From a virus: DNA of 64,000 nucleotides. The DNA is taken from IMG/VR virus record IMGVR_UViG_3300045988_104412; one strand, 5' to 3'. The position numbers were made by a program, and so were the translations under genes. Position 1 is the stretch's first letter; every line of letters starts with the position of its first letter. The notes under the pieces are model-generated. The model saw only the letters and a list, made by a program, of their open reading frames with translations. It did no database searches and had not been told where the DNA came from. Shown in pieces: positions 2,606 to 50,152 of this stretch.

Positions 2606-3175
2606 TTAGTTCACTAACATAGGACCCGTGTCGCGGCCTGTAAACGATATATTGATATTGCGAGCATAGTCTCCGTTCTTTTCCGTCATTTCGTCAACGT
2701 GTAGCTTCACGCGGAACGTCTTTTTCCCATATTCGTCGCCCTTATCAAGAGTCCTTATCTCTACCCAGGCACCTTTTACGGGCTGATTGTTGTCCCATGT
2801 GCTTAGTTCGTTCTTCTTGTATTCGGGCTGCCATTGATCCTTCCATCCCCACACCGAACCGTCCGCTTGCTCCACCTCGTAACGACCGTCATACATATCG
2901 TCAGCAGGGGCATTGTAGACCGAAAAACAGACAACGTAGTAGTCGGTCTTGTAATTGCCCATCATCGGGTCGCTATAGAGGGCAAAGTACCCCTTGCCGT
3001 AGTTTTGGGAGTAAGACAACTGATGCACAGGCTTCTCTTTGAGAAGTTTTGAAAAAGCCGACTCCACCGGCACATACTCCGGCTCTGCATCGTCATTACT
3101 GCTACAACTGCCAATACTCACACATGCTGCTGTCATCATCGTCAACAGCAGCATCATTCTAAAGATTTTCTTCAT
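2606..3175 (-). CDS. lipoprotein (moron-like, opposite strand to neighbours)
   Basis: MKKIFRMMLLLTMMTAACVSIGSC lipobox-type signal; 189 aa. Confidence 0.75.
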   Translation of the reverse strand: MKKIFRMMLLLTMMTAACVSIGSCSSNDDAEPEYVPVESAFSKLLKEKPVHQLSYSQNYGKGYFALYSDPMMGNYKTDYYVVCFSVYNAPADDMYDGRYEVEQADGSVWGWKDQWQPEYKKNELSTWDNNQPVKGAWVEIRTLDKGDEYGKKTFRVKLHVDEMTEKNGDYARNINISFTGRDTGPMLVN

Positions 3176-3250
3176 ACATTAATATTTTTATACGTCAGTA
3201 CTTTCGTAGTTTTCTGATTTTGAAATAATAGATGTAGGGTCGGTCGTAGG

Positions 3251-3610
3251 CTATTCTTCGGGCAGCAGCACTACGCCGACACGGACTTTTGCGCCACAAT
3301 GAGGGCAGAAGGTGGAGGTATTGATAGTGAGTTGTGAGTGTTCTTGTGTATTATTTCCTTTCTCCTCTTTTTCTTCATTGAATGAAGGGTCGATATTCTC
3401 GGTATTGTCCGATTCATCTATTGGATAGAATAGGTCGGTGATGTCACAATCTAATTTCTCGCAAAGGTCTTCCAATCGCCTTATCGTAGGGTTTCCTTTG
3501 ATATAATTCTGAATGATGTTCTGTGTCTTTAGGTCGAATTTCTGACAGAAAGACGTAATGGTGTAACCGCGCTCCGTAATGGCGCGGCGAATGTCAATTT
3601 TTGTTCTCAT
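3251..3610 (-). CDS. XRE-family HTH regulator with C-terminal zinc-ribbon
   Basis: ITERGYTITSFCQKFDLKTQNIIQNYIKGNPTIRRLEDLCEKL HTH; CPHCGAK at C-terminus; start 3610 chosen because a minus-strand TAATTTTG box sits at 3635-3642. Confidence 0.75.
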   Translation of the reverse strand: MRTKIDIRRAITERGYTITSFCQKFDLKTQNIIQNYIKGNPTIRRLEDLCEKLDCDITDLFYPIDESDNTENIDPSFNEEKEEKGNNTQEHSQLTINTSTFCPHCGAKVRVGVVLLPEE

Positions 3611-3634
3611 ATATATGGTTGTATTGTTTGCCTG

Positions 3635-3642
3635 CAAAATTA
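3635..3642 (-). promoter_or_regulatory. Bacteroidota -7 promoter box TAATTTTG for the HTH gene
   Basis: Exact TAnnTTTG match 25 nt upstream of ATG 3610 on minus strand. Confidence 0.55.
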
Positions 3643-3829
3643 ATATATATATTTGTATTACGCAAGTTTTGCAAGAAATAATTATTGTATATATTTATTT
3701 TATTCGAGATTCATGGTTTTTATTAGTTTATATCGTTTTCTTGTACATTATTAGTGAAAAATACGAGAAGACAACTTATATTTCTTGTGTTTGAATTATT
3801 CATTCGCTCCTATAAATAGTTAATAATCA

Positions 3830-4115
3830 GCGTTTAATCCGCATATTACCATACGAAAGTCGCCCCAAAAGGGACACTTAAATAATTGATAATTAGAGCA
3901 ATCGCATCCCCGAACTCTGCCCTGAAACTTTAATCCAGAAGCGAGATTGCCCACCGCGCTGAGGAGCCTCGTGGCGTGCCTGCCTGGGATGGCGTTTGTA
4001 TATGCCACCGACCAGCAGCAGGGAGGCACCAGGCGCCGCCGCGCGCCCTCGATGGTCCACACCACCACCGACACCACCGACCAGTAGCAGGGAGGCCCCA
4101 GGCGCCTATATATAT
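3830..4115. other. GC-rich non-coding island (candidate structured RNA or protein-binding element)
   Basis: Visibly GC-rich block inside very AT-rich intergenic DNA; only implausible minus-strand ORFs; contains 33-nt direct repeats. Confidence 0.4.
4005..4106 (+). repeat. two 33-nt direct repeats separated by 36 nt
   Basis: CCACCGACCAG[C/T]AGCAGGGAGGC[A/C]CCAGGCGCC at 4005-4037 and 4074-4106. Confidence 0.9.
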
Positions 4116-4249
4116 ATAATAAGGAGAGCAATTGTATGTAATTGTAAACAAACGTAAAAAAAACTACTTGTATTTGTTTGCAAAGGTTAAAAGTAAATAT
4201 ATTTAATAATTAAACATCGGATAAATTTGGTTATATCAAATTTATATAA

Positions 4250-4257
4250 TACCTTTG
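4250..4257 (+). promoter_or_regulatory. -7 promoter box TACCTTTG
   Basis: Exact TAnnTTTG 40 nt upstream of ATG 4297; a second box TAAATTTG at 4222-4229. Confidence 0.55.
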
Positions 4258-4296
4258 CAAACGTAAACAATAAACAAATAAAATACTTTACAGATT

Positions 4297-4650
4297 ATGA
4301 ACAAAAAACAAACAGCGGTTTTAATCGCTCTCGCAACGTTAGCGATTAACAAAAAAGACGGTTTTACTGTAAACGCGGAAACTTTACAGCCTGTAACACG
4401 CGGTTACGCTGTAGCCATTGCAGACACTCAAGACTCGTTTGGTCTCGAAGGTCTTGCTAACGTTGTAAAATATGTTTCCGAACATCCGGAAATAAATGCT
4501 TTTGGCGGTTGGTACAATAGCAAAAATAATATGTATTATTTTGATGCTACCGTAATAGTTGAGGATTTACAAAAAGCCCTCGAACTTGGCCGCGCAAATA
4601 AACAACTTGCAATCTTCGATCTTGCAAACGGTTTAACTATCGACCTTTAG
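4297..4650 (+). CDS. hypothetical protein
   Basis: 117-aa ORF behind conserved leader ACTTTACAGATTATG; followed by hairpin 4657-4679. Confidence 0.6.
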   Translation: MNKKQTAVLIALATLAINKKDGFTVNAETLQPVTRGYAVAIADTQDSFGLEGLANVVKYVSEHPEINAFGGWYNSKNNMYYFDATVIVEDLQKALELGRANKQLAIFDLANGLTIDL

Positions 4651-4656
4651 AAAAAC

Positions 4657-4679
4657 AAGGACCGGCGGCGCCGGTCCTT
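4657..4679 (+). terminator. hairpin terminator candidate
   Basis: AAGGACCGG-cggcg-CCGGTCCTT, 9-bp stem. Confidence 0.55.
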
Positions 4680-4706
4680 ATATAGCAATAACAAAAACTT
4701 TATATT

Positions 4707-5057
4707 ATGATATATAACAAAGAAATCAACGGCGTTAAATTTACACTTGTTTGCGAGTCGTGGCAGACTCGAAATAGTTGGGGGCATAAAGTTTCGCTCT
4801 ATCGAAACGAATCTTTTTTTGTTGGTAGCGCAAAAATCCGCTATTATAATAGGACTTGGGAAAAATACCAGTATCAAAGTACTATTAAAAGCGTAATTTT
4901 CAACGCTATTCAAGGAATAAAAGCGGCGGCAAAGAAAGTTTTTTTAAGTGTGCATAACTATAAAGTTATGACAAAAAAGCGCGCCGTGGCCTTTCTTGAG
5001 TACCTGAAAAAAGATAATGAATATAATTTGTATAACGAACTTTTAAAAATGTTCTAA
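4707..5057 (+). CDS. hypothetical protein
   Basis: 116-aa ORF, followed by hairpin 5065-5088 plus T-run. Confidence 0.55.
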   Translation: MIYNKEINGVKFTLVCESWQTRNSWGHKVSLYRNESFFVGSAKIRYYNRTWEKYQYQSTIKSVIFNAIQGIKAAAKKVFLSVHNYKVMTKKRAVAFLEYLKKDNEYNLYNELLKMF

Positions 5058-5064
5058 CCGTTCA

Positions 5065-5088
5065 CGGGCTGCAATTACTTGCAGCCCG
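5065..5088 (+). terminator. intrinsic terminator
   Basis: CGGGCTGC-aattactt-GCAGCCCG followed by TTTTTATTTT. Confidence 0.7.
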
Positions 5089-5100
5089 TTTTTATTTTGT

Positions 5101-5330
5101 GGCTATCTGTGGCTACTCGTGGCTATCCGTGGCTACTCGTGGCTATCCGTGGCTACTCGTGGCTATCTGTGGCTACTCGTGGCTACTCGTGGCTATCTGT
5201 GGCTACTCGTGGCTATCTGTGGCTACTCGTGGCTATCCGTGGCTACTCGTGGCTATCTGTGGCTACTCGTGGCTACTCGTGGCTATCCGTGGCTATCTGT
5301 GGCTATCCGTGGCTATCTGTGGCTACTCGT
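5101..5330. repeat. 23 tandem 10-bp units GGCTAYYYGT (three variants)
   Basis: Counted directly: GGCTATCTGT x7, GGCTACTCGT x11, GGCTATCCGT x5, no spacer. Confidence 0.98.
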
Positions 5331-17169: not shown

Positions 17170-17346
17170 CAGTCTGTTTCATTGTTTTCGTTCGACGGAA
17201 ACTAAAATCCGTTGAATCGGTTGAATCCGATGTCAAAGAAAGGTCGGGCTCATCCGTTTCTTCTGATGACTGGCGTGTGGACATAATTGTAAATGACGAA
17301 TGGGACTGATAACGAAGAGAGTGGTTTTACACAATTACACAAAAAA

Positions 17347-17476
17347 CATAAAGCCACAAACACATAAAACCACAAATCCACATTTGTGGTTTCTCATAAA
17401 CACACAAACACATCCACACATAAATGCACAAACGCATAAATTCATAAACGCATACATAAATCAATCAACACATAAA
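17347..17476 (+). repeat. eight CATAAA motifs in a nearly G-free A/C-rich tract (candidate centromere/parS-like site)
   Basis: CATAAA starts at 17347, 17363, 17395, 17419, 17435, 17443, 17455, 17471; inverted repeat CCACAAAT-ccac-ATTTGTGG at 17370-17389; immediately upstream of parA. Confidence 0.5.
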
Positions 17477-17576
17477 GCAATAAACAAATAAATCAATATA
17501 TATATAAATACATACATCAAGAAAGAAATCAACAAACAAACAAATCAATAAACAAACAAATAAATGTACATGGATG

Positions 17577-17612
17577 TTTGTTTATTTCAATTATAATTCT
17601 TAAATTTGCAAC
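17577..17612 (+). promoter_or_regulatory. conserved 36-nt promoter cassette, copy 1 (TTTG -33, TAAATTTG -7)
   Basis: TTTGTTTATTTCAATTATAATTCTTAAATTTGCAAC; near-identical copies at 23532-23566 and 50879-50913. Confidence 0.65.
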
Positions 17613-17676
17613 GTATTACAGATTATACGTGTTCTGTATACTTGGATAGTATCATCAATTTTTAACTTTACAGAAG

Positions 17677-18543
17677 ATGGAAAGACTTAGAGAAGTGCTT
17701 GCCTTTGTAAATCACAAAGGCGGCGTAGGAAAAACAACAACGGTGCAGAGTTTAGCGACTGGCTTGCGCCGTTTTGGTAAAGGAAAATTCGGAGTGGGTG
17801 CCGATGGACGCAAACGCTTGCCGCGTGTGCTCATTATCGACCTTGACCCGCAGGCGTGTGCCTCGTTCCTCTTCGGATGGAGCGAGATTCAGAACGTAGG
17901 CAAGCCTACCGTTTACGACGCATTGGTACAGCAAAGCAATTTGCCCATTTATCAGGTACGTGAGGGTATTTACCTCGCGCCAGCTGCTGCGCAGCTCATA
18001 TCCATTGAACCGTTCCTTAATCAGCGTGCTTTGCCTCGCAAAGCTCTTTGTAAATTGCTCGCCAAGCCACTGAACGAGCTGGCAGGCACCGAGCTGGCAG
18101 ACGAAGGCGTGAACACCGTCACGGATGCTTTCGACTACGTGCTTATAGATTGTCCTCCGGCTATGTCGCTGCTTACATATAATGCTCTCACAGCTGCTAC
18201 GAGTGTAGTGCTGCCCGTTCAACTCGAAGTGTTGGCAACAAAAGGTATTGCCGAAATCATCAACGCCATCAAGGAAACACGTGAGGATCTTAATCCCGAC
18301 CTTGACATTCGTGGCTTGCTGATGGTAATGAGCAACGACCAGACCAACGCCACAAAGGAGTTCAAGGAATACCTTGGCGAAAAGTATCAGGACTATATGT
18401 TTGACGCTTATACGCGCCGCGACACGAAGATGGTCGAAGCGCAGGCTATGCGAGAAGACATCTTTGCTTATGCACCGTATTGCAGGGTAGGGCAGGACTA
18501 TGAGCGTTTTACCAAGGAGATAATCAACAGTTTCACTTTTTAA
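17677..18543 (+). CDS. parA: ParA/Soj-type partition ATPase
   Basis: Deviant Walker A NHKGGVGKTTT, IIDLDPQ, LIDCPP motifs. Confidence 0.9.
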   Translation: MERLREVLAFVNHKGGVGKTTTVQSLATGLRRFGKGKFGVGADGRKRLPRVLIIDLDPQACASFLFGWSEIQNVGKPTVYDALVQQSNLPIYQVREGIYLAPAAAQLISIEPFLNQRALPRKALCKLLAKPLNELAGTELADEGVNTVTDAFDYVLIDCPPAMSLLTYNALTAATSVVLPVQLEVLATKGIAEIINAIKETREDLNPDLDIRGLLMVMSNDQTNATKEFKEYLGEKYQDYMFDAYTRRDTKMVEAQAMREDIFAYAPYCRVGQDYERFTKEIINSFTF

Positions 18544-18554
18544 TATTATAGGGT

Positions 18555-19010
18555 ATGGCAAGAGAAATGACGAAGAAGACGAGACGCTTCAGTCTTGAGG
18601 AGTCTGACGCTATCGAGGAGAACGAGCGCATATTGGAATCCGGCAGTAAGCAGCGTAAGGAGAACAGGGAAAACAAGGGGAGTGGAGAAGCGGCAGTAAG
18701 TGCTGCCACTGCTTCGTCCGCAGAAGTTCCGGCGACTGAAAAGCCGACTGTTTCTACAACAACGTCTGAGACTGAGACATCGACAACTACAACCCCTGTA
18801 GCAGATCAGCCGGCAACCATATCATTCAGCAACGATATTGCTGTGAACATGCGTAAGCCGAAGGGCAAGAAGACCGAGAATGGCATCACCATATACGTGC
18901 CGATGGAGTATTACGAGCGTATCGCCTTGATGAAAATGCGCACTGGCGTGCCTATCAAGGATTTGGCGCTACAGGCTGTGATTGAGTTCCTGGACAGAAA
19001 CAAAATGTAA
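18555..19010 (+). CDS. ribbon-helix-helix protein, ParG-like centromere-binding candidate
   Basis: Follows parA by 11 nt; disordered S/T-rich N-terminal part; C-terminus ITIYVPMEYYERIALMKMRTGVPIKDLALQAVIEFL fits strand-helix-helix. Confidence 0.55.
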   Translation: MAREMTKKTRRFSLEESDAIEENERILESGSKQRKENRENKGSGEAAVSAATASSAEVPATEKPTVSTTTSETETSTTTTPVADQPATISFSNDIAVNMRKPKGKKTENGITIYVPMEYYERIALMKMRTGVPIKDLALQAVIEFLDRNKM

Positions 19011-19024
19011 TAGACTAATTTCTT

Positions 19025-19582
19025 ATGAAGAAGATTATATCAGTTTTGTTTGCGCTCTGCCTGTGTATGGTAGCAAGCGCACAGCAGCATTTGAAGTTTA
19101 TGGGCATACCGTTAGACGGAACGGTGGACAACTTCGCCTTGAAGCTGAAGGCTAAGGGCGTTACATACGATGCAGCGAAGTCGAAGACAGCAGGACCAGG
19201 TAACAGGGTATTTAACGGTACGTTTGTAGGGGAGGATGCTGAGATTGTGGTGTTCTATAATAACAAAAGTAAAATAGTGTATGGTGCTGCTGTCGAATTA
19301 CAATATTCTACAGTCGAGACTGCTCATACTCCCTTTGTAAACTTAACTGAGCAGTTGCAGCAGAAATACCCTAATGCGAAATACAGAGCAAATAGAGATT
19401 CAGATGGTGACGCAAACGGAGTGGCATTTGATATTCCCGATAAAACAGGAACAAAAAGAATTGGCGTTATTCTCCAAACATTGAACGTGTCCGATTCAGG
19501 GTATGGCTGTTCTATATGGCTCATGTATACTGACATAGACAATTTTCAAAAAAATGACACTATAAATAACGAGGACTTGTAA
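19025..19582 (+). CDS. secreted protein (SPI signal)
   Basis: MKKIISVLFALCLCMVASAQQ signal peptide. Confidence 0.6.
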   Translation: MKKIISVLFALCLCMVASAQQHLKFMGIPLDGTVDNFALKLKAKGVTYDAAKSKTAGPGNRVFNGTFVGEDAEIVVFYNNKSKIVYGAAVELQYSTVETAHTPFVNLTEQLQQKYPNAKYRANRDSDGDANGVAFDIPDKTGTKRIGVILQTLNVSDSGYGCSIWLMYTDIDNFQKNDTINNEDL

Positions 19583-19618
19583 TGTGTAAGGTAAAATCCT
19601 ACTAAAGTTTTTTACCTT

Positions 19619-19689
19619 GGTGAAAAGGTCATAATGTTTTTTACCTTAAAAGGGATTAGGAGGTGAAAAGGTCATAATGTTTTTTACCT
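19619..19689 (+). repeat. two direct 28-bp iterons GGTGAAAAGGTCATAATGTTTTTTACCT
   Basis: Identical copies at 19619-19646 and 19662-19689. Confidence 0.9.
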
Positions 19690-19790
19690 ATTATTTAAAA
19701 TAAACATAATAAAATACTTTGTTTGTTTTATTTAGGGAAGACAAAAAATGCACTTATACTCCTATATATTAAGCAATTAGAAAGATTGCG

Positions 19791-19853
19791 AGGTAAAAAA
19801 CATTATGACCAAATACCCCTAAAAAGGGTGGTTGAGGTAAAAAACATTATGAC
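19791..19853 (-). repeat. two inverted-orientation copies of the iteron core (AGGTAAAAAACATTATGAC)
   Basis: 19791-19810 and 19835-19853; flank an AT-rich stretch just upstream of the rep-like gene. Confidence 0.9.
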
Positions 19854-19885
19854 TTCTTTACCAAAATCACGTAAAAGCATCTATT

Positions 19886-21097
19886 ATGGAAAGAGAAAAA
19901 CATCTACCGCAACAATATATCAGTACCCCTTTTGCTTACACAAAGTTCTCCAAGAACCTGTCATTGCTTCAGCAAACGGTATTGACTAAGGTCAGCGAAC
20001 ACCTACAGGGTTATGTGCGTCATTTCTTTGGAAGTAACTTACGAAATGACCCGAAGGTGCCGCGTCCTCTTTTTTCTGAAGCAGAAAAGAACAACGGTAT
20101 GCCGGAGTTTGTTATGTCGTATGCTGAGTTAGGTGTGGATATAGCCAACTATAATGTAGCGCGTGCAGCCGTCCAGGAAGTTCTAAACCTAACCGTTGAT
20201 GCTCCCAGTGAGGACAGCGACGGCAAGGCTTCCGTCAAGGCTTTTAATATCTTCACGCACGCCAATATTTCTTTTGAAGGTGGTACAGGCGTGTCTTTCA
20301 GGCTGAATCCCGAGGTCGTGGACTATGTGTTTGACATGAGTCAGGGGTATGTGCGCCATCCTGCTGATATAGCACGAATAGGACAGATTGAACGTATGCC
20401 CATGATGTATTATTATCTGCATAAGAAATCAGAGCACTGGAAGCATCGGAGTGTACGCTTGACGGTATTAGAAATAAAGACATATTTGGGTATGCTGGGC
20501 AATATTACCGAAGGCACAGACGAAAGGTCTGGACGACCACGAAAAGACGGAAAAGAGAAGAAAGAGGCTTATCCTAAGTTCTCTCAGTTTAAGAAGAATG
20601 TCATTGAGACAAGCATCAACGACATTAATCGCTTGCGAAAAGACGGATTGCTTGATGTTTGTGTGTCGTATGAACCTATCTATAACGGCAAGCGCAAAGT
20701 TGGTAATCCTGCATATATAGAGTTTACAATCTATGACACCATCGGGCAAATGCAACAAGCAGTACAAAAAAGACAACAGCTCAATCTCTTTGCTGATGTC
20801 GAGGAGTTGAAGCCGAAGCCAGGTGAAAAGGAGTGGCAGAAACTTTTGACCATGCTTGACGGCGAAGCAGGCGAGTGGCTGGGTAGTGAGATGTCGGACC
20901 TGTTGAAAAAAATGACGCTTGATAAATATGACGGCAAGACTGTCCGGATTATTGCGACTCAGAAACAGGTGGCAGACATGGAGAATTTGCTGGGTAATAA
21001 TGTACTAAAAAATAAATTTAGCCAATTACTTGGTCATTGTTTTAAAGGCGACAAACGTAAAAAGGTTTGTTTGGATTATAATAAAATTAATAAATAG
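19886..21097 (+). CDS. plasmid-type replication initiator (Rep_3/RepB-like)
   Basis: Iterons directly upstream; N-terminal FSKNLSLLQQTVLTKVSEHL, central LTVLEIKTYLGM, YPKFSQFKKNVIETSINDINR resemble Rep_3 winged-helix consensus as recalled; not searched. Confidence 0.6.
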   Translation: MEREKHLPQQYISTPFAYTKFSKNLSLLQQTVLTKVSEHLQGYVRHFFGSNLRNDPKVPRPLFSEAEKNNGMPEFVMSYAELGVDIANYNVARAAVQEVLNLTVDAPSEDSDGKASVKAFNIFTHANISFEGGTGVSFRLNPEVVDYVFDMSQGYVRHPADIARIGQIERMPMMYYYLHKKSEHWKHRSVRLTVLEIKTYLGMLGNITEGTDERSGRPRKDGKEKKEAYPKFSQFKKNVIETSINDINRLRKDGLLDVCVSYEPIYNGKRKVGNPAYIEFTIYDTIGQMQQAVQKRQQLNLFADVEELKPKPGEKEWQKLLTMLDGEAGEWLGSEMSDLLKKMTLDKYDGKTVRIIATQKQVADMENLLGNNVLKNKFSQLLGHCFKGDKRKKVCLDYNKINK

Positions 21098-21102
21098 TTT
21101 TA

Positions 21103-21134
21103 CACCGCTTACCCTTCCCATGGGGTAGGCGGTG
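21103..21134 (+). terminator. intrinsic terminator
   Basis: CACCGCTTACCC-ttcccatg-GGGTAGGCGGTG followed by TTTTT. Confidence 0.7.
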
Positions 21135-21204
21135 TTTTTAGTATGTCCTGGTGATGTCTGCGACTTTTTCTAATTTTGTAGGTAGAAACCAACAGAACAT
21201 ATAT

Positions 21205-21786
21205 ATGGGAAGAATCAGAAACATCATGTTATGGCTTATGACCGTAATCACGCTTTTTGGCTGTGCGGCTTCGCGTAAGACGATGACCGGCAGCCACGAA
21301 GAACGACGAGATAGCTCGGTGGTTGCTGTCACGGATAGTATGACAAAATCGGAGGTAGAGACGGACAGCACGGTACGTTTCGCCACGGACGAGAGTTATG
21401 CGTCCGGCTCTATGAGCGAGAAGGGTAGGGGAGAAGAGACCATTCAAGAACGAGTGACAGAGAGCACGGATGCTCAAGGTAACAAGACCACCACCACCAA
21501 TCGCACGATACACCGCAAGGGCGACTATGAGCGCAGCAGCTCGTATGAGCAACACTTAAAGCATCTTGAGGCGACTATATCACGGATGCAGCACACAATC
21601 GACAGTCTTGTGTTGAGTAATAAACTGAACGTTGGCACCCACTGGGCGAAGAAGGACAGCACGAATGTGGTGAAGGAGAAGAATACGAATGATATAAAGT
21701 CAACATCGACTTCTAATCTAATCACACTCTTTTTATTCTGGATAGCTGCTGTTGGAATTTGTTCATGGCTTTACAATAAACGATAG
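21205..21786 (+). CDS. lipoprotein with C-terminal membrane helix
   Basis: MGRIRNIMLWLMTVITLFGC lipobox; C-terminal LITLFLFWIAAVGICSWLY. Confidence 0.55.
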   Translation: MGRIRNIMLWLMTVITLFGCAASRKTMTGSHEERRDSSVVAVTDSMTKSEVETDSTVRFATDESYASGSMSEKGRGEETIQERVTESTDAQGNKTTTTNRTIHRKGDYERSSSYEQHLKHLEATISRMQHTIDSLVLSNKLNVGTHWAKKDSTNVVKEKNTNDIKSTSTSNLITLFLFWIAAVGICSWLYNKR

Positions 21787-22773: not shown

Positions 22774-23460
22774 TTAGTCATGTGTCGGATGTTCGGCAAC
22801 CATATATCCGTCGTTCGCACTCGTATTCTTATAGCGCCTTGCGTCGTTGAGTATACTCGTAAGGTTCGCTATCTGCTTTTGCTGTTCAGCAATGATGTCG
22901 AGTAGGCGTGCGCGTTCCTCGCTGTGCCGTTCGTCAGCTTCTATGCGTTTAGATTCGAGGTCGAGCAATGCTTTCATATTTCTATCACTTACATTGCCTA
23001 CTATTATCATTTTCCCTTGATCTGAGTCGGGAGCCTGAACACAGATAGGAGAGGCGTTGTCCGTATTTTTGTGCTCTTTTTCATCAGAAGATACAATACC
23101 TGGTACCACAGATGGAATTATCGTAACATCCAAAGGGTCGAGAAGCGCACGACTGCCAGCCTTACGCTCGGTAACATAGCCGCCGTCAGGAGCAAATATG
23201 TCGCCTTCTTGTGGCTGTACGTACATTGCACTCCGCGTTGGATCACTATCTTTATCATAAAAGAAAGCTGAGATAGGCACTTGGAAGGTGTTGCAAAAGC
23301 GCAATATACTTGATATCGGCATAGGACATCTGCCTTGTTCCCATAGACGCAGACTGTTGTTTGATGTAGAACCGATAGATTGCAGAATAGTGTTGATCTT
23401 TATCCTGCCGTTGACCTCCATCCACCTACCGAGGAAGGAATAATTGTATTGGTACTTCAT
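22774..23460 (-). CDS. HTH (XRE-like) regulator with coiled-coil C-terminal half; repressor candidate
   Basis: INTILQSIGSTSNNSLRLWEQGRCPMPISSILRFCNTFQVPISAFF; divergent from the 23589 gene. Confidence 0.6.
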   Translation of the reverse strand: MKYQYNYSFLGRWMEVNGRIKINTILQSIGSTSNNSLRLWEQGRCPMPISSILRFCNTFQVPISAFFYDKDSDPTRSAMYVQPQEGDIFAPDGGYVTERKAGSRALLDPLDVTIIPSVVPGIVSSDEKEHKNTDNASPICVQAPDSDQGKMIIVGNVSDRNMKALLDLESKRIEADERHSEERARLLDIIAEQQKQIANLTSILNDARRYKNTSANDGYMVAEHPTHD

Positions 23461-23531
23461 AACTGAATTGTTTTAAAACGACATTTGTATGTTAAAAATC
23501 GTAAATATTGAAAATAAACATAGGTTAGCTA

Positions 23532-23566
23532 TTGTTTATTTGTATTTTAATTCTTAAATTTGCAAC
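23532..23566 (+). promoter_or_regulatory. conserved promoter cassette, copy 2
   Basis: TTGTTTATTTGTATTTTAATTCTTAAATTTGCAAC; TAAATTTG at 23555-23562. Confidence 0.65.
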
Positions 23567-23588
23567 AAATATAGTGAATAACTGAAAA

Positions 23589-24080
23589 ATGACAAAGGAA
23601 AATCTCGAGAAAATAACCACACCATTGCAATCTTTGGACGTTAAAGATATTTCGGTGGAAGAAAAGAAATCGTTGTCTGATTTTATGCAGACAAAAGGCT
23701 TCTCTGTATCCACTTTTTATCTGCGTTTCTTTAAAAATGGCTTCTCTGTTTGGGAAATCATCGGCATTAATGAATGTAAAAAACAATTCTTAGCTATGCC
23801 AGAAGTAGCCGAGCTATTATTGTCGTATGTAGGAGACGAAGCGCAGGGAGACAAGGGTTATCTTTATACTTTGGCTAAGAGCGAAAAGGCTGGTGTTTTC
23901 TACAATTGCTTTAAACGTGCCAATACTGGACTTTGCAAAAAGTTCTTCGACTTTATGAACGAGCGCGGTATGAGCACAGGTACTGTTATTAAGCGTTTCA
24001 CCACCGACAACTGGAAAGAATGGGAGGCTAACGGTATCAAGAATTGTCTTTTGCAGTTTAACCTAAAACCTACTAAATAA
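23589..24080 (+). CDS. hypothetical protein with internal duplication (Cro/antirepressor position)
   Basis: KGFSVSTFYLRFFKNGFSVWEIIGINECKKQF and RGMSTGTVIKRFTTDNWKEWEANGIKNCLLQF are paralogous segments. Confidence 0.55.
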   Translation: MTKENLEKITTPLQSLDVKDISVEEKKSLSDFMQTKGFSVSTFYLRFFKNGFSVWEIIGINECKKQFLAMPEVAELLLSYVGDEAQGDKGYLYTLAKSEKAGVFYNCFKRANTGLCKKFFDFMNERGMSTGTVIKRFTTDNWKEWEANGIKNCLLQFNLKPTK

Positions 24081-38730: not shown

Positions 38731-40000
38731 TTAAAATTCGCCAAAATCCAGTTTCATCTGTTGAAATTTCTCGGCATACCATTGTCTGGATGATTTGCCA
38801 GAAATCCACCAGTCGTAGATGTTCTCCGCTATTTCGTTTTCTTGCTCCTCTGTCAAGCGGTCAGAAGAGGAGCTGTCCGAAAACCCAATGCGGCGAGTCC
38901 ACACACCGGTGTTCCTTCGGACAGGTCTTCCAGTTACAGACTGTCCGCATCCACTGTTTACAAATGCGGAACGTCGGCATTGCCGCTTCTCGTATTTTAC
39001 CCCCCAGTCGGATTGTTTGTAGAATCGAGCTGGATCCAATGTTCCGGGTCGGGATGCTTGATGTAGCCGCCTGCGTCCTGAGCAATTCTCTGACGTTTCT
39101 GAGAGGCATCCAGTCCTTGTGGATGTTCCACCAGATGTATTCTTTTTTGAATACCCCCCCGTTTCGGATGGCCTTAATCGCCTTAATCCAGTTTCTCTTT
39201 ACATGTGGATAGCGTTCGTTTTCTATCATCTTTTGCTTATGCGAACTCATTGGACAGCCGATGCAACCTATGCGGTGCCATCCTTCGTCGTAGAGCGAGC
39301 AATGCGGAACTTTCACAACATCATTAAGAAATTCCCATACGTCTTGCTCGGTCCAATAGATAATGGGCGAAATCAGTAGACTCTCTTTGCCGTGGATGCA
39401 GCCTAACGTCTGCTCCTCGTCGGCATTGGTGATGTTCACTCCGTCCTCTCTTGACTTTCGCCTTATGCGTTTAGCCTTCTGCTCTTGTCTATACTCTTCA
39501 AGACCATCGAGGTCGCCGCTAAACTTTCGATTGTTTATCTCCACCTCGTTGCGCTTTGCCCGGCGCGAACTCTCTGCCTTACGTATGCCGATAAGCGTAA
39601 CCTTGCCAGCACCTGCCGTTTCCTTGTATTCAGCGCAGCACCAACGCACACGCATAGTTGGCAAAATCTGTCTTTCTACGGCACTTTGAAAGATGGATTT
39701 ACCAGGCTTGTTTAGTTCCACCTCGGGATAGTTTTTCTTCACGAAGCGTATCACTTCGGGCGGGTCAACGCTCGTAAGATTCATGTGACCTTGAAACCTT
39801 ACCCCCGCTAACTATGCGATATGGTAGAGAGCCTGAGAATCTTTGCCGCCGCTAAACGCCAAAAAATAACCTTGCTCGGCATCATAGTTGAGAGCAATCT
39901 TCTCCGCCTTTTGCAACAATTCCACCGAGTGAAGCATTTTCTTTCGCAATCGTGCCGAAGCACGGTTTAAGGCTTCGGCAAGCGTAATTTTGATATTCAT
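38731..40000 (-). pseudogene. PP-loop ATPase / PAPS-reductase-family gene with in-frame TAG and at least one frame change
   Basis: SGGKDS in ORF 40000-39812; TAG 39814-39812; same frame resumes 27 nt later (39784); C-terminal coding signal ends in another frame at 38731. Confidence 0.7.
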
Positions 40001-40120
40001 TTATTTATAAATTTGTATTATTATATTTTTACTATCAAAGTCGGCATTTAGACAAATAGGAGGCGGCGTGCCATGCCAAAGAACTCACGAAAAGTCATTG
40101 TTACTCGAACGTAATCCAAT

Positions 40121-40182
40121 CGGACGGCGAACGCAATCCGAGCGGACGGCGAACGCAATCTAATTGGGCGGCGAACGCAATC
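40121..40182. repeat. three tandem ~22-bp repeats (GGCGAACGCAATC core)
   Basis: CGGACGGCGAACGCAATCC 40121-40139; CGGACGGCGAACGCAATC 40143-40160; GGGCGGCGAACGCAATCC 40166-40182. Confidence 0.9.
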
Positions 40183-40198
40183 CGGAGAAACGAACCTT

Positions 40199-41209
40199 TT
40201 AGAAGGAAGCGTTTATTCCGTAATTCCTCAAATACTCCTCGCACCTGAAGTCCTTTCTTGGTGAGAAGTCCTTGAAATTGGTAGTACAGAAAATCATTCG
40301 CTTATTGCACCAGCGTGCCAGATCCTTTTGCCATTCCGGAACAACGTGATTAGGATTCACGGGGTCACGGTATGGCTGAGCGTAAGCATAAACCGCCCTA
40401 CCTTCGTGAGTCTTGCGAAACCGTTGTAGACGTTTCCACCAATAGTGTAGCCGATGATAGCATTCTTCAAAGTTGTTCTTGCCGCCTATCATGGTATAGA
40501 GAAAGTATTCGCCCCGGAATCCTGCCGCATTGATAAGTTGCATGGCTCGTTCACAATATGCTATCTGTGCCGTGGTGTCGCAACCAAAGCGGATGCGAGA
40601 GTCTATCCATTTCACTTTCCCTAACAGCTCGGCATATTCGGGAGTGACAAGCCGTGCATCCATCGCCTGATTGAAGTCGATATGCAGACCGAGGTCGATT
40701 ATCTTCTTGAGCTGCTCCTTTGCATAGTCGCCCGCCGCAAGAATGTTGTTGTCCATCAGCACAACATGCGTGCGCCCCTCTATGGCAATTTCTTCTATAT
40801 CCATGTAAGGACGTATGCGCCCCTCCTTTTTCGGAACAACACACCAGAAGCATTTGTTAGGGCACCCCTCGGTAAGTTTGCCTACGGCTTGATTTTTCGG
40901 TAGCCAAGGGTACATCGCGTAGAGAGGTTGGAGCTTGTCTATCTCGTCGGGCAGACGCTTATAGATGTCGTAGCCCGTGCCACCCTTCTCCAGTCGGTCG
41001 TAGGAGAACTGCCGAAAGTCGATGTCGGGCGAAAAGTTGAAAACCTTGCTGGCATACAGTATGTCGTAATGATGCCTGTCGAAAAGGTCGGTAGGCTGTG
41101 CCCATTCCACTTCATCGCCCTGCGTCGTGTGCCAACGGGCAATCTTGCCGAGATCCACGTTAGGGTATATCGTAGCTCCCCATTTCTTTTTGCCGTGTCG
41201 CCCATCCAC
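40199..41209 (-). CDS. radical SAM enzyme, unknown substrate
   Basis: CPNKCFWC (CxxxCxxC) cluster motif; 336 aa. Confidence 0.8.
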   Translation of the reverse strand: MDGRHGKKKWGATIYPNVDLGKIARWHTTQGDEVEWAQPTDLFDRHHYDILYASKVFNFSPDIDFRQFSYDRLEKGGTGYDIYKRLPDEIDKLQPLYAMYPWLPKNQAVGKLTEGCPNKCFWCVVPKKEGRIRPYMDIEEIAIEGRTHVVLMDNNILAAGDYAKEQLKKIIDLGLHIDFNQAMDARLVTPEYAELLGKVKWIDSRIRFGCDTTAQIAYCERAMQLINAAGFRGEYFLYTMIGGKNNFEECYHRLHYWWKRLQRFRKTHEGRAVYAYAQPYRDPVNPNHVVPEWQKDLARWCNKRMIFCTTNFKDFSPRKDFRCEEYLRNYGINASF

Positions 41210-43951: not shown

Positions 43952-46900
43952 ATGGCAAATCTAAAGACAGAAGTAATCCTCTCGATGAACGGCAAGGCCG
44001 CCATTCAGGTGCTCGAAGCTCTGCGCGACAAGGCCAGGTCTGTGAGAGAGGAAATAGATCATCTCGACAAGGACGCTCCCGACTTCAAGGAGCGTAAGGC
44101 TGGACTCGAAAGCGTTTACAAGACTTTACAGAACTACCAAACGAATATCATCAAGGACACTGAGCGTCTCGACCATGCGCTTAAAAACCTTTCTACCACC
44201 TCGCTTCAAAACTTACGCAAGGCTTTGGGCGATGGTCGTCGTCAACTGCAAAAGTTATCTGAGGACGACTTGGCGCAAGCCGAGGAGGTACGTAAGAAGA
44301 TGAAGCAGGTGGGCGATGAGATACGCCTTATAGAGGGTCAGTATGTCAAGATAGCTGAAGGATTGAAGAATGTCGCCAACCAGTCTGACCAATGGCTCGA
44401 CAAGGCTATCAAGCAGCAGCGCGACCTTGTGGGTTCGCTGCAAAAATCGGATGCCGGCTATCAGCAGAACCTCGCTACATTGAAGCAGCTTGAAGCCGAG
44501 GAAGACAGACGCAAGGGCAAGATGAACGTGGCAGAGGCACGTCAAACGGTAAGTGATGACAATGCCTCTGCTTCTGATTTGCGTCGTGCTAAAGCAACAC
44601 TTACGGAAGCTCGTGACAAGACAGCCATCGGCAAGACTGGAGAGATTGATTCTTACAACCGTGACCTTCAAGAGATAGAGAGGCGATTGGAGGCTGTGTC
44701 GGGCAAGACTCAGAAAGCATCAATGAGTTGGAAACAGATGAAGCGAGTGTTGGCTGAACCCAACAAGGCTTCGGGCGAAGACATCAAACGTACGATGGAG
44801 GTGATACAGCAGAAGATACAGCAACTCCCTGCCGGCAGCAAGTATGTAGCCGACCTCCGTCGCCAATACTCCATGCTCGAACAAACTCTTAAGGGCACAC
44901 GTATGTCGCAGAGTGCTCTCAACGACATCCTCTCGCGTAGCAAGCAGGGTAAGGCTTCCCTCGACGAACTGCGCCGTGCCTACAAGCAGCTTGAGGAGGA
45001 AATGAACCAAGTCAACACCACGAGCAAGGAGTTTGCCGACAAGCAGAAGTCGATGAAAGAACTGAAGAAGAATATCGACGAGGTGACGGGCGCGACCAAT
45101 AAGCAGGGTGGGGCATGGCATACGGCGTTGAAGAACCTCACGGCATACGTCGGATTGTTTTCCGTATTCAATCATATAAAAGACCTTGTGACGGGTGCCA
45201 TTAAGAAGAACTTTGAATATTCGGGTTCGTTGACCGACATCCGCAAGGTTTCTGGCTTGACAATGGAACAGGTAAAACAACTCTCTACTGAGTTGGCTAA
45301 AATTGACACCAGAACTTCTGTGGATGGACTGGCACAGCTCGCGTATCAGGGCGCGAAGCTCGGCATGGGCAAGTATGGTGTTGAAGGTATGGCCCAGTTC
45401 GTAAGAGCCGCGGATCAAATCAATGTAGCCATTGGTGAGGAGATGGGCGAGGAAGCTCTTCCGGCACTTTCTAAGATGGTGGAAGTTATGGGACTTATTC
45501 CAAAAATGGGTATCGAGAAGGCAATGGAGGCTACAGGCTCTGCCATGTTTAAGTTGTCTTCTACGAGCACATCTACTTCCAACGACATCGTGGAATTTTC
45601 AAAGCGACTGACGGGTGTTGCTCGTACCGCGGGTATCACCACCGACCAGTTGCTTGCCCTCGGTTCGGCAAGTTCTTCGATGATGCTTATGCCGGAGGTG
45701 GCTTCTACCGCTATGGGTAAGTTTATAGTAGCTTTGCAGAAAAACCACAACCTTATTGCAAAGGAACTTGGCATACCCGATGAGACCATTAAGAACCTCT
45801 ATGCGTCGGGTCACGCTATGGATGCCATCGTGCTTGTACTTGAGAAGATGCGCGACAAGGGTAATATGAACACCTTGGGTGGCATTTTCAAAGACCTCGG
45901 CTCCGACGGTCAGCGACTCGTTACCGCTATGGTTACGATGTCGAAGAACGTGGATATTCTGAAGGATCATCTCTACGAGTCGGAAGAGGCGTTCCGTGAA
46001 GCCACTGCTGTAGGCAAGGAATACTCGATGCAGCAGCTGTCGGCCATCGGTATTCTCGAAAGAGCCAATAACCTTTGGGAAAAGGCGTTTGTCAATCCTG
46101 ATGGTGTGGACGCTGTAAAGGGCATGGCAGAATGGTGGTATGAAATGTCGGCAACGATGACAAACAGCCCGTTGTTGAAAGGTACGTTGCAGATTGCTTT
46201 ACAGATGGTACTTATAACATTGAAAGCCGTAGCGACCCTTTTGCCGGTAATCATTGGATATATGGCTTCACAGGGTCTTTATTCTGGATTGAGACTTCTG
46301 TGGCAATACTTGACAGCACTGGGTGTAGCGGTAAAGAGTATGTTTCAATATGCAAGAGCTCTCTTCACGGCCAATGCAGCGCAAAGCACGTTGAACAAGA
46401 CTACGAAACTAAACCCTTGGATAGCTTTCGCGAGTGTTATTATCGGCGTGGCAGGAGCTATATATGGATATACACAACGTGCAAGGGAAGCTGCTGAAGC
46501 TGCGAAAGAAGCTGAGAGACAGGCAAACGCATGGAAGTCCACCCTCGGTCAGGCAGCGATAGAAACGGAAAACTTGAAGGATAAGCTCAAGAACTATAAG
46601 CGAATGTTGAGCGAGGCAAACCTTTCACAAAAGGACCGTCAAGGTCTTATCTCAAGATTTAACAGAGATTTCCGCTCGTACATCAATAATCTCGGCATTG
46701 AGATAAAGAACGTCAAGGATTTGCGCGACCATTATGCAGATTTGGCGCAGGAGGCCGAAAGAGCTACCTATTATCGTATGCGTGAGCAAGCAAAGCAGCA
46801 GGCTTTGCCTAAGCTGGACAATGACGTAAACACTGCTTCCAATGCAGTTATGGAGAATATAACGAAGTTGGGATTAGACAAACTCGGTGTGAAGTTTAAG

Positions 46901-49900: not shown

Positions 49901-50152
49901 CGCAACTATTCCGGTCGCCACGCCTACGACACTGGCAATATCTCCGAGACAAGCCCCACGATCGCCGCAGAGTCTTCCATAAGCGACGAAATGGTGTCTA
50001 ACCAAGCCACTACCAATATCGCCCTCCTGCAAGCCGTAAACACGCTCCTGCAACGTCTGGAGCAACCTATCGAGGCAAAGATAGATATGTATGGCCGTGG
50101 CAAGCTCTACGACAGCATGACAAAAGCTAATCAGTTTATGAAGAACAAATAG
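43952..50152 (+). CDS. tail tape-measure protein
   Basis: 2066 aa; long coiled coils; TP901-type core (GSLTDIRKVSGLTMEQVKQLS...DGLAQLAYQGAKLGMG...AADQINVAIGEEMGEEALPALSKM); internal hydrophobic helices; stops at TAG before a nested hairpin. Confidence 0.85.
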   Translation: MANLKTEVILSMNGKAAIQVLEALRDKARSVREEIDHLDKDAPDFKERKAGLESVYKTLQNYQTNIIKDTERLDHALKNLSTTSLQNLRKALGDGRRQLQKLSEDDLAQAEEVRKKMKQVGDEIRLIEGQYVKIAEGLKNVANQSDQWLDKAIKQQRDLVGSLQKSDAGYQQNLATLKQLEAEEDRRKGKMNVAEARQTVSDDNASASDLRRAKATLTEARDKTAIGKTGEIDSYNRDLQEIERRLEAVSGKTQKASMSWKQMKRVLAEPNKASGEDIKRTMEVIQQKIQQLPAGSKYVADLRRQYSMLEQTLKGTRMSQSALNDILSRSKQGKASLDELRRAYKQLEEEMNQVNTTSKEFADKQKSMKELKKNIDEVTGATNKQGGAWHTALKNLTAYVGLFSVFNHIKDLVTGAIKKNFEYSGSLTDIRKVSGLTMEQVKQLSTELAKIDTRTSVDGLAQLAYQGAKLGMGKYGVEGMAQFVRAADQINVAIGEEMGEEALPALSKMVEVMGLIPKMGIEKAMEATGSAMFKLSSTSTSTSNDIVEFSKRLTGVARTAGITTDQLLALGSASSSMMLMPEVASTAMGKFIVALQKNHNLIAKELGIPDETIKNLYASGHAMDAIVLVLEKMRDKGNMNTLGGIFKDLGSDGQRLVTAMVTMSKNVDILKDHLYESEEAFREATAVGKEYSMQQLSAIGILERANNLWEKAFVNPDGVDAVKGMAEWWYEMSATMTNSPLLKGTLQIALQMVLITLKAVATLLPVIIGYMASQGLYSGLRLLWQYLTALGVAVKSMFQYARALFTANAAQSTLNKTTKLNPWIAFASVIIGVAGAIYGYTQRAREAAEAAKEAERQANAWKSTLGQAAIETENLKDKLKNYKRMLSEANLSQKDRQGLISRFNRDFRSYINNLGIEIKNVKDLRDHYADLAQEAERATYYRMREQAKQQALPKLDNDVNTASNAVMENITKLGLDKLGVKFKDIYRWVKAGMSAKDITLKLAKMLPREKTGLADGFNWKIGKQGYIYRDTYDKDHKATPATDFQTQTELADMYRDNLWFVNAYKRKGKKLKQINKAFSNWVDENYQPTPPETPGTLDNNAKDKDAIAEEKRRENDQKRAWREELKQKQDQAKAIMDDVSNYYDRQINAKLAQAISLNMDKTEQEQFVLPLRQNKEIARSQVRLAVAGKPNKWEDAKKMMAADMVEQKDETGINLSKDLLDGILNNNIDNLRKLMEQLGKNLGLSMNSITAEIFAKATRSEQEILKMELKQMEARRKIVMEHDYTGIVQQNSYDNFNEMGYAAPTKEETTVTKKMVDGKEVLDTSAFDKRRKAIKDMYETARKELAQLYAIDVSTTDGKGVLMKILFGDDPDGMAARIKASLGESEESWKSFYLNLIQYSDNYAEAEKKKYDSAKKIVDFWWSSNKRNLAQQDKLRKMQNESNLFGKRTNLLSNLGLANLTADPEIELMKARMQAAEDYYAFVERNTKNKQLIDEAERARQEAELAYANQMATAMKSRLSQMKELVQPIEDFGAAVGQALAEMRYDAESANDAIKSALKSMLESWAKMALNDVNTQMWKAINDAGAKRGKKKAQPDIDAARANAKANYTDLNGIDWRNFGTESNPLWVRWAGDHYENKSGDAVYTKEDGTPLPNPNGSVPQSNEPPSAWKKRHPDGTIDDYNKEVKSLGGQVGTSMVGQTGASVAGAVTGSSSFGDAATGIAMSGADALLNAQIKKTSKSEKEREKQLKKEKKHQKDLTKETKKGLSDREKATGKGVKNITSTTEQGNKEQSKGTVVAQQTITNATEAGLNATLTAKQKNNDETLKSDANRTQGEVTFSIAGAMAKCFEFLGPIAGPIAAAVVMSTLMGLLQWALNSALGGGKKKNSTKGPNTKVVSGMLTYDSGNVQDLRPFVGNDGSLYWAAEDSNPHNGVSLLTRPTATSINGHPSLVAEKGPELVIGRETTQAMMMNNPQLLKALVNYDRNYSGRHAYDTGNISETSPTIAAESSISDEMVSNQATTNIALLQAVNTLLQRLEQPIEAKIDMYGRGKLYDSMTKANQFMKNK

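Follow-up and report, generated by a model that had tools for sequence, protein, structure and literature searches.

A candidate phage-plasmid of Prevotella/Segatella with a type Ib-like partition operon and an iteron replicon

The prophage of P1 is a circular extrachromosomal molecule of ∼90 kb, which does not integrate. Its replication depends on a Rep under iteron control and its inheritance on an active partition operon; the par and rep alleles of P1 and P7 define incompatibility. Phage-plasmids reportedly, after Pfeifer et al. in 2021, are single replicons that unite a phage core with plasmid replication and partition genes and are carried extrachromosomally. Plasmid partition systems of type Ib (TP228 ParF-ParG-parH; pSM19035 δ-ω) consist of a small Walker-type ParA that lacks a helix-turn-helix (HTH) domain and a small dimeric ribbon-helix-helix (RHH) protein with a flexible basic N-terminal tail, and their centromere/operator contains many short repeats with a 7–8 nt period, located upstream of and overlapping the par promoter. 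Here, we describe a partition and replication cassette with features of this kind in a 64,000-nucleotide stretch of viral DNA, the IMG/VR record IMGVR_UViG_3300045988_104412 (the window), and consider the lifestyle of the phage that carries it.

Plasmids and large extrachromosomal elements, circular and obtained from isolates, have been described in the Segatella copri complex (Blanco-Miguez et al. 2023, PMC10635906). Carjivirus communis (the prototypic crAssphage) is prevalent in the gut, infects Bacteroidota and lacks an integrase; it has been put forward as a phage-plasmid that persists extrachromosomally (PMC10983915). The "Flandersviridae" (Benler et al. 2021, PMC8008677), known as ∼85–95 kb circular contigs from whole-community gut metagenomes with Bacteroidota hosts, led their authors to raise P1-like persistence as a possibility (PMC8008677). 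The field has yet to settle how abundant phages of gut Bacteroidota that lack integrases are able to persist, and a limited literature search returned no account of a Prevotella/Segatella phage family in which a ParA-RHH-Rep_3 cassette is universal. The phage-plasmid is already known as a kind, and we present this locus as another probable instance of it; most notable are the way in which replication and partition specificities have diversified cassette by cassette throughout the family, and the relatedness of the replicon to plasmids of the host.

The cassette occupies positions 17339–21135 of the window as a single compact unit on the plus strand. Its parts are complete and ordered, and are bounded by a promoter and a terminator, an arrangement that we count in favor of a phage-plasmid. 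A preliminary description made from the nucleotide sequence had placed a plasmid-style maintenance island at 17341–21134, and all of its elements were recovered at or within a few bases of the positions given there. The same replicon carries virion and tail genes together with a plasmid-type initiator and partition genes, and no integration machinery was detected on it. We regard this phage as probably a phage-plasmid that combines type Ib partition with an iteron replicon, and whose genome would persist as a low-copy extrachromosomal replicon. This is the best reading because no integration machinery was detected, the genome is circular or circularly permuted, the cassette is akin to S. copri plasmid modules, and a divergent Cro/CI-type HTH gene is present. 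The phage-plasmid proposed in the preliminary description is thus retained, with a cassette that is bounded and evolutionarily maintained and with the plasmid state itself predicted; the case rests on gene content, comparative genomics and the lack of chromosome-linked contigs. The features, homologies, family-wide conservation and protein-repeat covariation set out below are demonstrated at the level of sequence.

The first gene of the cassette encodes ParA, a small Walker-type partition ATPase of 288 residues (17677–18543, plus strand). The protein matches Pfam AAA_31 (1.5e-36), CbiA (6e-12) and PHROG 164, 'ParA-like partition protein' (1.6e-46), as well as two NCBIfam ParA/RepA partition models (3e-20 and 3e-19, both under the curated cut-offs). 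The deviant Walker A motif KGGVGKT, already pointed out in the preliminary description, spans residues 14–20. The AAA_31 match begins at residue 6 and there is no N-terminal HTH extension; judged from the sequence, the architecture is that of type Ib. ParA from plasmid unnamed2 of S. copri DSM 18205 is 40% identical to the window protein (2e-73), and matches to ParA proteins of GenBank phages reach 34% identity at best.

Twelve bases past parA begins an open reading frame (ORF) for a 151-residue protein (18555–19010, plus strand), the probable centromere-binding protein and analogue of ParG and ω. It consists of a basic N-terminus, a low-complexity linker rich in S, T and E that is disordered in the predicted model, and a conserved C-terminal (β)-α-α domain of ∼45 residues (residues ∼108–150, NGITIYVPMEYYERIALMKMRTGVPIKDLALQAVIEFLDRNK). 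Neither Pfam nor NCBIfam contains a match for this protein, and an RHH profile search against the PDB gave nothing usable. The top PDB sequence match, a weak one, is the RHH protein ORF56 of pRN1 (E = 0.18). In an AlphaFold2 (AF2) model, residues 110–150 (predicted local distance difference test, pLDDT, 83–89) form an extended GITIYVP segment followed by two helices, and RHH folds (MatP, PutA, CopG, NikA and Arc) predominate among the top Foldseek matches for it, all of which are non-significant (E≥1.9). The modeled C-terminus is probably an RHH fold. The RHH protein named in the preliminary description therefore stands as an ORF right after parA with weak convergent RHH signals, its fold being probable rather than proven. 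An RHH-like gene is found directly 3′ of parA in 62 of 62 related loci. Two tandem RHH-like genes (137 and 82 residues) follow parA in some relatives (L013, 8955–9632; L316, 2210–2887), each resembling a different RHH type; they could represent an intermediate of cassette exchange or a partition module with dual specificity.

The region upstream of parA contains a tract of ∼26 degenerate 8-nt units, CAyAAAnn (17339–17566, no strand assigned), which is a candidate centromere/operator. The tract is A/C-rich (56% A, 5% G). Units with CATAAA and CACAAA alternate, giving a 16-nt super-period, and its autocorrelation peaks at lag 8 (z = 5.6) and lag 16 (z = 6.8) when compared to 1000 first-order Markov shuffles, in agreement with the repeat tract noticed in the preliminary description. 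A palindrome, AAACCACAAATCCACATTTGTGGTTT, lies within the tract at 17366–17393. Between the tract and parA is a predicted Bacteroidota-type promoter for the par operon (17575–17608, plus strand), in which TTTG marks the −33 region and TAAATTTG, at 17601–17608, corresponds to the −7 motif TAnnTTTG. This promoter was called as a consensus match in a TAnnTTTG scan, scans for sigma-70 promoters being uninformative for Bacteroidota, and the TAAATTTGCA block is kept in relatives of every par type. Short repeats upstream of parA thus abut the TTTG...TAAATTTG promoter, an arrangement that, at the sequence level, is that of type Ib.

The putative origin lies directly upstream of rep. Three direct iterons occupy 19598–19689 (plus strand), with a degenerate copy at 19598–19617 and exact copies of GGTCATAATGTTTTTTACCT at 19627–19646 and 19670–19689. 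Two inverted iterons are located at 19791–19854 (minus strand), one exact (19791–19810) and the other with one mismatch (19835–19854). The 20-mer GGTCATAATGTTTTTTACCT is absent elsewhere in the 64 kb, with 0 occurrences expected by chance. The spacing of the direct iterons is 43 nt, and iteron spacing overall is 43–44 nt. The two sets are separated by an AT-rich spacer of 101 nt (19690–19790, 78% AT, no strand assigned), a candidate DNA-unwinding region whose position is kept in all Rep types. The inverted iterons lie 32–95 nt upstream of the rep ATG, such that rep starts 32 nt past the last copy, and they are a candidate operator for autorepression by Rep, as judged from their placement. The preliminary description had counted four iterons around an AT-rich stretch; both the iterons and the stretch are confirmed, and the count becomes three direct plus two inverted. 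No DnaA box (TTATCCACA-like, ≤1 mismatch) is present in 19500–19900, and the single TTATCCACA-like site within 17200–21200 is at 20134, inside rep. DnaA boxes are common in iteron origins without being universal. At least three iterons thus lie beside an AT-rich region and next to rep, with a sequence specific to the Rep type, as is characteristic of iteron replicons.

Rep (403 residues; 19886–21097, plus strand) is identified by Pfam, PHROG and plasmid homology as a divergent initiator of the Rep_3 (WH1-WH2) family. Its score with Pfam Rep3_C (WH2, PF21205) is 23.7 bits, above the cut-off of 21.1, and it matches PHROG 4402, annotated as 'replication initiation protein', at 4.3e-5, which bears out the Rep_3-like initiator of the preliminary description. 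The Rep3_N model (WH1) is above its cut-off in the homologue from an S. hominis plasmid (26.8 versus 22.4) and below it in the Rep of a sister phage; we call the window Rep a divergent member of the family because the WH1 model passes in the plasmid homologue and not in the window protein. The annotated relatives of Rep are exclusively proteins of Segatella/Prevotella plasmids, and these alignments run end to end; RepB or 'replication initiation' proteins of such plasmids share 27–30% identity over 78–85% of the length. No homologue was found by tblastn among GenBank phages, and no Rep relative by a sequence search of the PDB. A plasmid-type homologue with 27% identity is also located within a 3.14-Mb contig of S. 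copri H-2632 (L049, NZ_JAVSCC010000001.1; 2,615,263–2,636,366), which might reflect the integration of a plasmid or extrachromosomal element, or else a join made during assembly. The cassette is closed by an intrinsic-terminator-like hairpin (21102–21135, plus strand) with a 14-bp stem, 8 G-C pairs and a T run.

The C-terminal domain of Rep (residues ∼312–403, window 20819–21097) is the only confidently modeled part of the protein (pLDDT about 90). Foldseek places 4tps chains B/D at the top for this domain (probability 0.93, E = 0.25), and a PDB profile search likewise has 4tps_B as its top match (E = 0.49). An hhalign comparison with a hand-entered sequence of the B. subtilis DnaA N-terminus gave a probability of 59%. 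The Reps of S. copri plasmids align across this region. The model suggests a resemblance to DnaA domain I, by which Rep might recruit a helicase without DnaA.

To place the cassette in context, relatives of the phage were gathered from IMG/VR using the conserved 1222-residue protein encoded elsewhere in the window, a probe that does not depend on the cassette. The related contigs number at least 138 and measure about 50–108 kb; ∼55 kb of structural, tail and DNA-metabolism genes are co-linear across them, at protein identities as low as 67%. The genes for ParA, the RHH-like protein and Rep occur in the same order in all 58 contigs that have at least 8.5 kb of upstream sequence; a chimeric assembly artefact is ruled out by the presence of the cassette in these 58 independent contigs. 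Sixty-two loci were compared by clustering, with Rep clusters defined at 80% identity. The 14 resulting Rep clusters each have their own repeated 12-mer upstream of rep: TAAAAAACATTA for the window type, and GGATTTGTTTAC, ATCTGACTTTTC, AACTATACCCTT, CTTTTGTAGTGA and TTGGTACATAAA among the others. The layout of the origin is constant across Rep types, proceeding from direct copies through an AT-rich stretch to inverted copies before the ATG, and the iteron copies are often 22 bp apart in the sister types.

The partition genes diversify in a similar manner, with 6 ParA clusters and 15 RHH clusters, each RHH cluster falling within one ParA cluster. An 8-nt (or 16/24-nt) period is present upstream of parA in almost all loci, and the repeated motif changes with the RHH type. 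Proteins with the β-strand GITIYVP are paired with CATAAA or AATAAA, those with GIVVNVP or GIVIDVP with TACGTT or TAGATA, those with GITIAVP with TTTGTT, and the xLPM types with AGTACT. Since the β-strand of RHH proteins reads DNA bases, this covariation is what is expected of a cognate pair of protein and site. Furthermore, the par and rep modules reassort, with 19 ParA × Rep combinations and one ParA type occurring with eight Rep types; the exact window Rep is found with a 288-residue and with a 280-residue ParA. In plasmids and in the plasmid prophages P1 and P7, incompatibility selection leads to the exchange of specificity cassettes while the backbone is conserved, and by analogy the reassortment seen here would reflect plasmid-incompatibility selection. 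At its broadest, the comparison would describe a globally prevalent Prevotella/Segatella phage-plasmid family in which at least 14 Rep/iteron and at least 15 RHH/centromere specificities are swapped on one virion backbone, the replicon type is common to the host's large extrachromosomal elements, the plasmid state is a main arena of selection, and Rep may recruit a helicase without DnaA. We advance this composite picture tentatively.

The remainder of the window is that of a tailed phage. PHROGs and Pfam identify a 2066-residue tape measure protein (43952–50152), a head maturation protease (57172–58830), a tail fibre and other virion structural proteins. TerL is weakly supported (PHROG 2, E = 8e-4), and capsid and portal genes were not securely identified with PHROGs and Pfam. 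Among the phage genes listed in the preliminary description, the tape measure and protease are thus upheld, terL is weakly so, and the capsid gene could not be verified. Genes for DNA metabolism include a sliding clamp, an NAD-ligase, an exonuclease, several DNA methyltransferases and an AEP-like primase (BT4734-like_N above cut-off), and a Met-tRNA is also present; no DNA polymerase was found in the phage. The 1222-residue protein is weakly supported as a helicase, with DUF5906 under threshold and only remote matches, for example to a Polaribacter phage. PDB searches with the putative TerL and with this helicase-like protein returned nothing usable. The cassette is located within the replication gene block, between the ligase and the exonuclease, helicase and clamp. 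The preliminary description had seen in these genes a separate lytic replisome, implying two replication modes. The clamp, the ligase, the AEP-like primase and the weakly supported helicase are parts of a replisome rather than a second initiator or origin, and two modes are not implied because Rep and the iterons, lying within the replication block, could serve both. Methyltransferase genes number at least five, three in the window and two more in the remainder of close relatives. An RtcB RNA ligase (7e-125) is encoded outside the window, in relative L062 (14008–15183).

Two further assemblies bear on the form of the genome. Contig 100224 (92,227 bp, 93–97% identical) runs from the end of the window through 28.8 kb to the start of the window. 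For the ENA contig ERZ27229691:k119_64029 (90,805 bp), the two end stretches that were retrieved match the window exactly (3207–5275, and beyond a 10-nt array to about 8812), and both ends stop inside this array (5098–5330), which the window reads through. By these overlaps, the genome measures about 91 kb and is circular or circularly permuted, with about 70% of it covered by the window. With PHROGs and Pfam, ORFs of at least ∼150 residues gave no match to an integrase, recombinase, transposase or protelomerase, either in the window, where the preliminary description had reported no integrase, or in the remaining ∼28.8 kb of the 93–97% identical relative, although a small or very divergent enzyme might have escaped these searches. 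The Rep gene was followed across ∼270 metagenome sample blocks, 221 with the exact Rep and 49 with a 90% variant. The longest contigs bearing it are 90–105 kb; since none exceeds 200 kb, the element was never seen joined to a chromosome.

We infer that the host belongs to Prevotella/Segatella, in line with the Bacteroidota-type host proposed earlier, because the plasmid homologies, NCBI labels ('uncultured Prevotella sp.'), bins of metagenome-assembled genomes and the promoter type, all sequence-based indications, point to this lineage. A blastn search with the island gave no match in GenBank phages or PLSDB plasmids, and no cultured or GenBank phage is related to this one at the DNA level.

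Taken together with the analogies to TP228 ParFG/parH, pSM19035 δ/ω and iteron plasmids, these features suggest how the cassette might work. Rep monomers, on binding to the three direct iterons, would melt the neighboring stretch of 78% AT, leading to theta replication, and the DnaA-domain-I-like module at the C-terminus may recruit a helicase directly. At the two inverted iterons, which overlie the promoter region of rep, bound Rep would repress its own gene and thereby limit copy number. Dimers of the RHH-like protein would coat the 8-nt-periodic tract, forming a partition complex and autoregulating the par operon, and their basic N-terminal tails would stimulate the small ParA so that sister copies are separated over the nucleoid, as in type Ib systems. 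DNA binding, autoregulation and segregation are drawn from these analogies, and helicase recruitment and, above all, the plasmid state itself are likewise inferred.

Candidates for a lysogeny switch are present in the window. A Cro/CI-type HTH protein (3251–3637, minus strand; HTH_26 at 3.1e-6, above cut-off) is encoded within a minus-strand trio of genes (2606–4131) that is divergent from plus-strand genes beginning at 4297; from its sequence and orientation, this gene is compatible with a lysogeny switch. Divergent matches to the Bacteroidota-type promoter at 23555 (plus) and 23573 (minus) flank an ORF of 228 residues (22774–23460, minus strand), which is family-specific and highly variable, with unannotated homologues. 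This protein was considered as a repressor and set aside: it has no Pfam or NCBIfam match and its match to the HTH protein C.BclI is weak (E = 0.12), so that it is not used as evidence. The region of the HTH trio (2606–4131) and 23460–23600 are both candidate switch regions.

Several observations weigh against a phage-plasmid. The cassette is embedded among the replication genes, a further initiator was not identified, and initiator-plus-iteron origins also drive lytic replication, as does λ O at ori-λ. The lack of long host-linked contigs is equally expected of a purely lytic phage, and no isolate or closed host genome was found with this phage. Toxin-antitoxin or addiction genes were not seen among 20 small or medium ORFs, nor was a clear repressor. 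The integrase scan beyond the window used a close relative, and ORFs shorter than ∼150 residues were scanned in part. As for the proteins themselves, Rep3_N (WH1, PF01051) is undetected in the window Rep, AF2 modeled Rep poorly (mean pLDDT 46.8), with the N-terminal two-thirds unreliable, and the RHH assignment depends on weak signals (E = 0.18; Foldseek E≥1.9). Much of this would suit a virulent or pseudolysogenic phage, for which Rep and the iterons are the only origin and a lytic one, while ParA and the RHH-like protein position or segregate replicating genomes in a carrier state or prolonged infection without true plasmid lysogeny. The position of the cassette, its universality in the family, which is like that of a core replication function, the absence of a second initiator or securely identified repressor, and the non-integrated contigs all fit this explanation, and circle-assembling abundant gut Bacteroidota phages have been considered possibly lytic (PMC8008677). 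However, dedicated ParA/centromere systems are typical of stably inherited replicons, ParA and Rep are most similar to genes of resident S. copri plasmids, and the diversification and reassortment of par and rep are hard to explain without selection from incompatibility or co-residence. The inverted iterons over the rep promoter suggest copy-number control, and a Cro/CI-type HTH gene is present. On balance, we consider a virulent or pseudolysogenic lifestyle rather unlikely, though it is the main rival to the phage-plasmid.

The other two explanations are much less attractive. An integrating temperate phage could carry an integrase or transposase that escaped detection, with the cassette as an auxiliary or a relic; many ORFs are without a family assignment, and a distant Rep homologue does lie inside a 3.1-Mb S. 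copri contig (L049). It is very improbable given that sensitive PHROGs and Pfam models found no match in ORFs of at least ∼150 residues across ∼91 kb and that none of the ∼270 sample blocks puts Rep on a contig longer than 200 kb, and a relic is at odds with the conservation of the cassette in 58 of 58 relatives, where its ORFs are intact and its sites covary. Equally improbable is a plasmid that captured defective phage or gene transfer agent-like structural genes and is not an infectious phage. Its appeal lies in the replicon type, common to host plasmids, and in TerL, portal and capsid genes that are not securely identified; against it, ∼55 kb of genes, including those for the tape measure, head protease, structural proteins and tail fibres, are co-linear across at least 138 contigs, the contigs are listed in IMG/VR as viral genomes, and prevalence in hundreds of samples suggests horizontal spread.

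Other genes and repeats near the cassette or elsewhere in the window were also noted. An accessory ORF of 185 residues (19025–19582, plus strand) between the par genes and the origin encodes a secreted or lipoprotein-like protein with a signal-peptide-like N-terminus and no Pfam, PHROG or NCBIfam match. Among relatives it is absent, single or duplicated, and from this distribution it is not a core part of the cassette. A second secreted or lipoprotein-like ORF, with an LFGC lipobox and a C-terminal transmembrane segment, is located just past the cassette (21151–21786). Both are candidate genes of the carried state, with roles such as exclusion or conversion.

The 10-nt tandem array mentioned above (5098–5330) contains ∼23 units of GTGGCTAyCy and lies past a terminator-like hairpin (5066–5092). 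IMG/VR contig 085320 also appears, from coordinate mapping, to be broken near it; given this break and the ends of k119_64029, the array is probably longer in reality than in the window. Possible roles are those of a pac site, a second origin or an array for protein binding. As a par centromere it was rejected: the array is not par-specific because its motif recurs in a relative with a different ParA/RHH type, whereas the tract upstream of parA covaries with RHH type. Another array, with 3.5 copies of the 22-nt unit CGAACGCAATCCAATCGGACGG (40106–40183), lies between minus-strand genes for a PAPS-reductase-like protein (38861–39784) and a radical SAM protein (40199–41209); its spacing is iteron-like, and a second origin or a regulatory site is possible. 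The auxiliary genes of the window (38861–41209, 52129–53097 and 53666–54562), which encode PAPS-reductase-like, two radical-SAM-type and thymidylate-synthase-like proteins, are unusual at this phage size, as are the methyltransferases and the RtcB ligase noted above. One of the radical-SAM-type proteins shares 50% identity with a Bacteroides phage Versailles protein.

Few phages have been cultured for Prevotella/Segatella copri, a lineage that is dominant in the gut and poorly tractable. If the phage is indeed a phage-plasmid, this would account for stable carriage and for the frequent assembly of circular genomes from bulk metagenomes, and lifestyle predictors keyed to integrases would wrongly label as virulent a group of phages that is prevalent. 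In the broader picture drawn above, selection would also act on its compatibility with resident S. copri plasmids and sibling phages. A host-adapted replicon-plus-partition cassette of 3.8 kb, available in many distinct specificities, could also serve as a starting point for compatible shuttle vectors in Segatella. In addition, the covarying pairs of proteins and sites constitute a natural dataset for the recognition codes of RHH proteins on DNA and of Rep on iterons.

Compared to the known systems, the phage resembles P1 by function, as a putative plasmid prophage that is circular, ∼90 kb, partitioned and iteron-controlled. The partition systems differ: that of P1 is type Ia, with a large ParA containing an N-terminal HTH, an HTH ParB and a downstream parS, whereas the window encodes a small ParA and an RHH-like protein and has short repeats upstream. 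The RepL/oriL lytic replicon, Cre-lox and phd-doc of P1 were not found here, and the P1 host is from a phylum other than Bacteroidota. N15 is linear with hairpin ends, a protelomerase with telRL and a type Ia par system, unlike the window phage, which has no protelomerase match and circularly permuted assemblies. The P1/N15 type suggested in the preliminary description does not hold, as the par system is type Ib-like rather than type Ia and the genome is circular or circularly permuted, not linear. Relative to ParG and ω, the RHH-like protein has double the length, including an extended linker rich in S, T and E, and shows a weakly supported RHH fold and no demonstrated sequence similarity. 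Rep and its origin are like F RepE, R6K π and pPS10 RepA in having a WH2 domain above the Pfam cut-off, direct iterons by an AT-rich region and a rep promoter overlain by inverted repeats; they differ from these in that no WH1 was detected, the origin has no DnaA box and Rep has an extra DnaA-domain-I-like C-terminus.

Among gut phages, Carjivirus communis belongs to an unrelated virion lineage and has RepL-type initiators and toxin-antitoxin genes, with no ParA operon reported in the part of the account considered here (PMC10983915). In the "Flandersviridae", compared here by description, partition genes are not identifiable and polA and dnaG are encoded (PMC8008677), whereas in the present family every member assessed has the ParA operon, and searches revealed no DNA polymerase. 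The S. copri-complex replicons that we compared (NZ_CP085934, CP152353, CP146521 and CP146525) come from the same host clade and carry metabolic and other cargo without virion genes. Plasmid unnamed2 of S. copri DSM 18205 (NZ_CP085934) has the same order of ParA, small ORF and RepB as the phage, although its small ORF aligns poorly with the phage RHH-like domain (13% identity). The phage cassette, by these sequence comparisons, is a sister lineage of the S. copri plasmid modules rather than a recent capture, since the identity between them is low.

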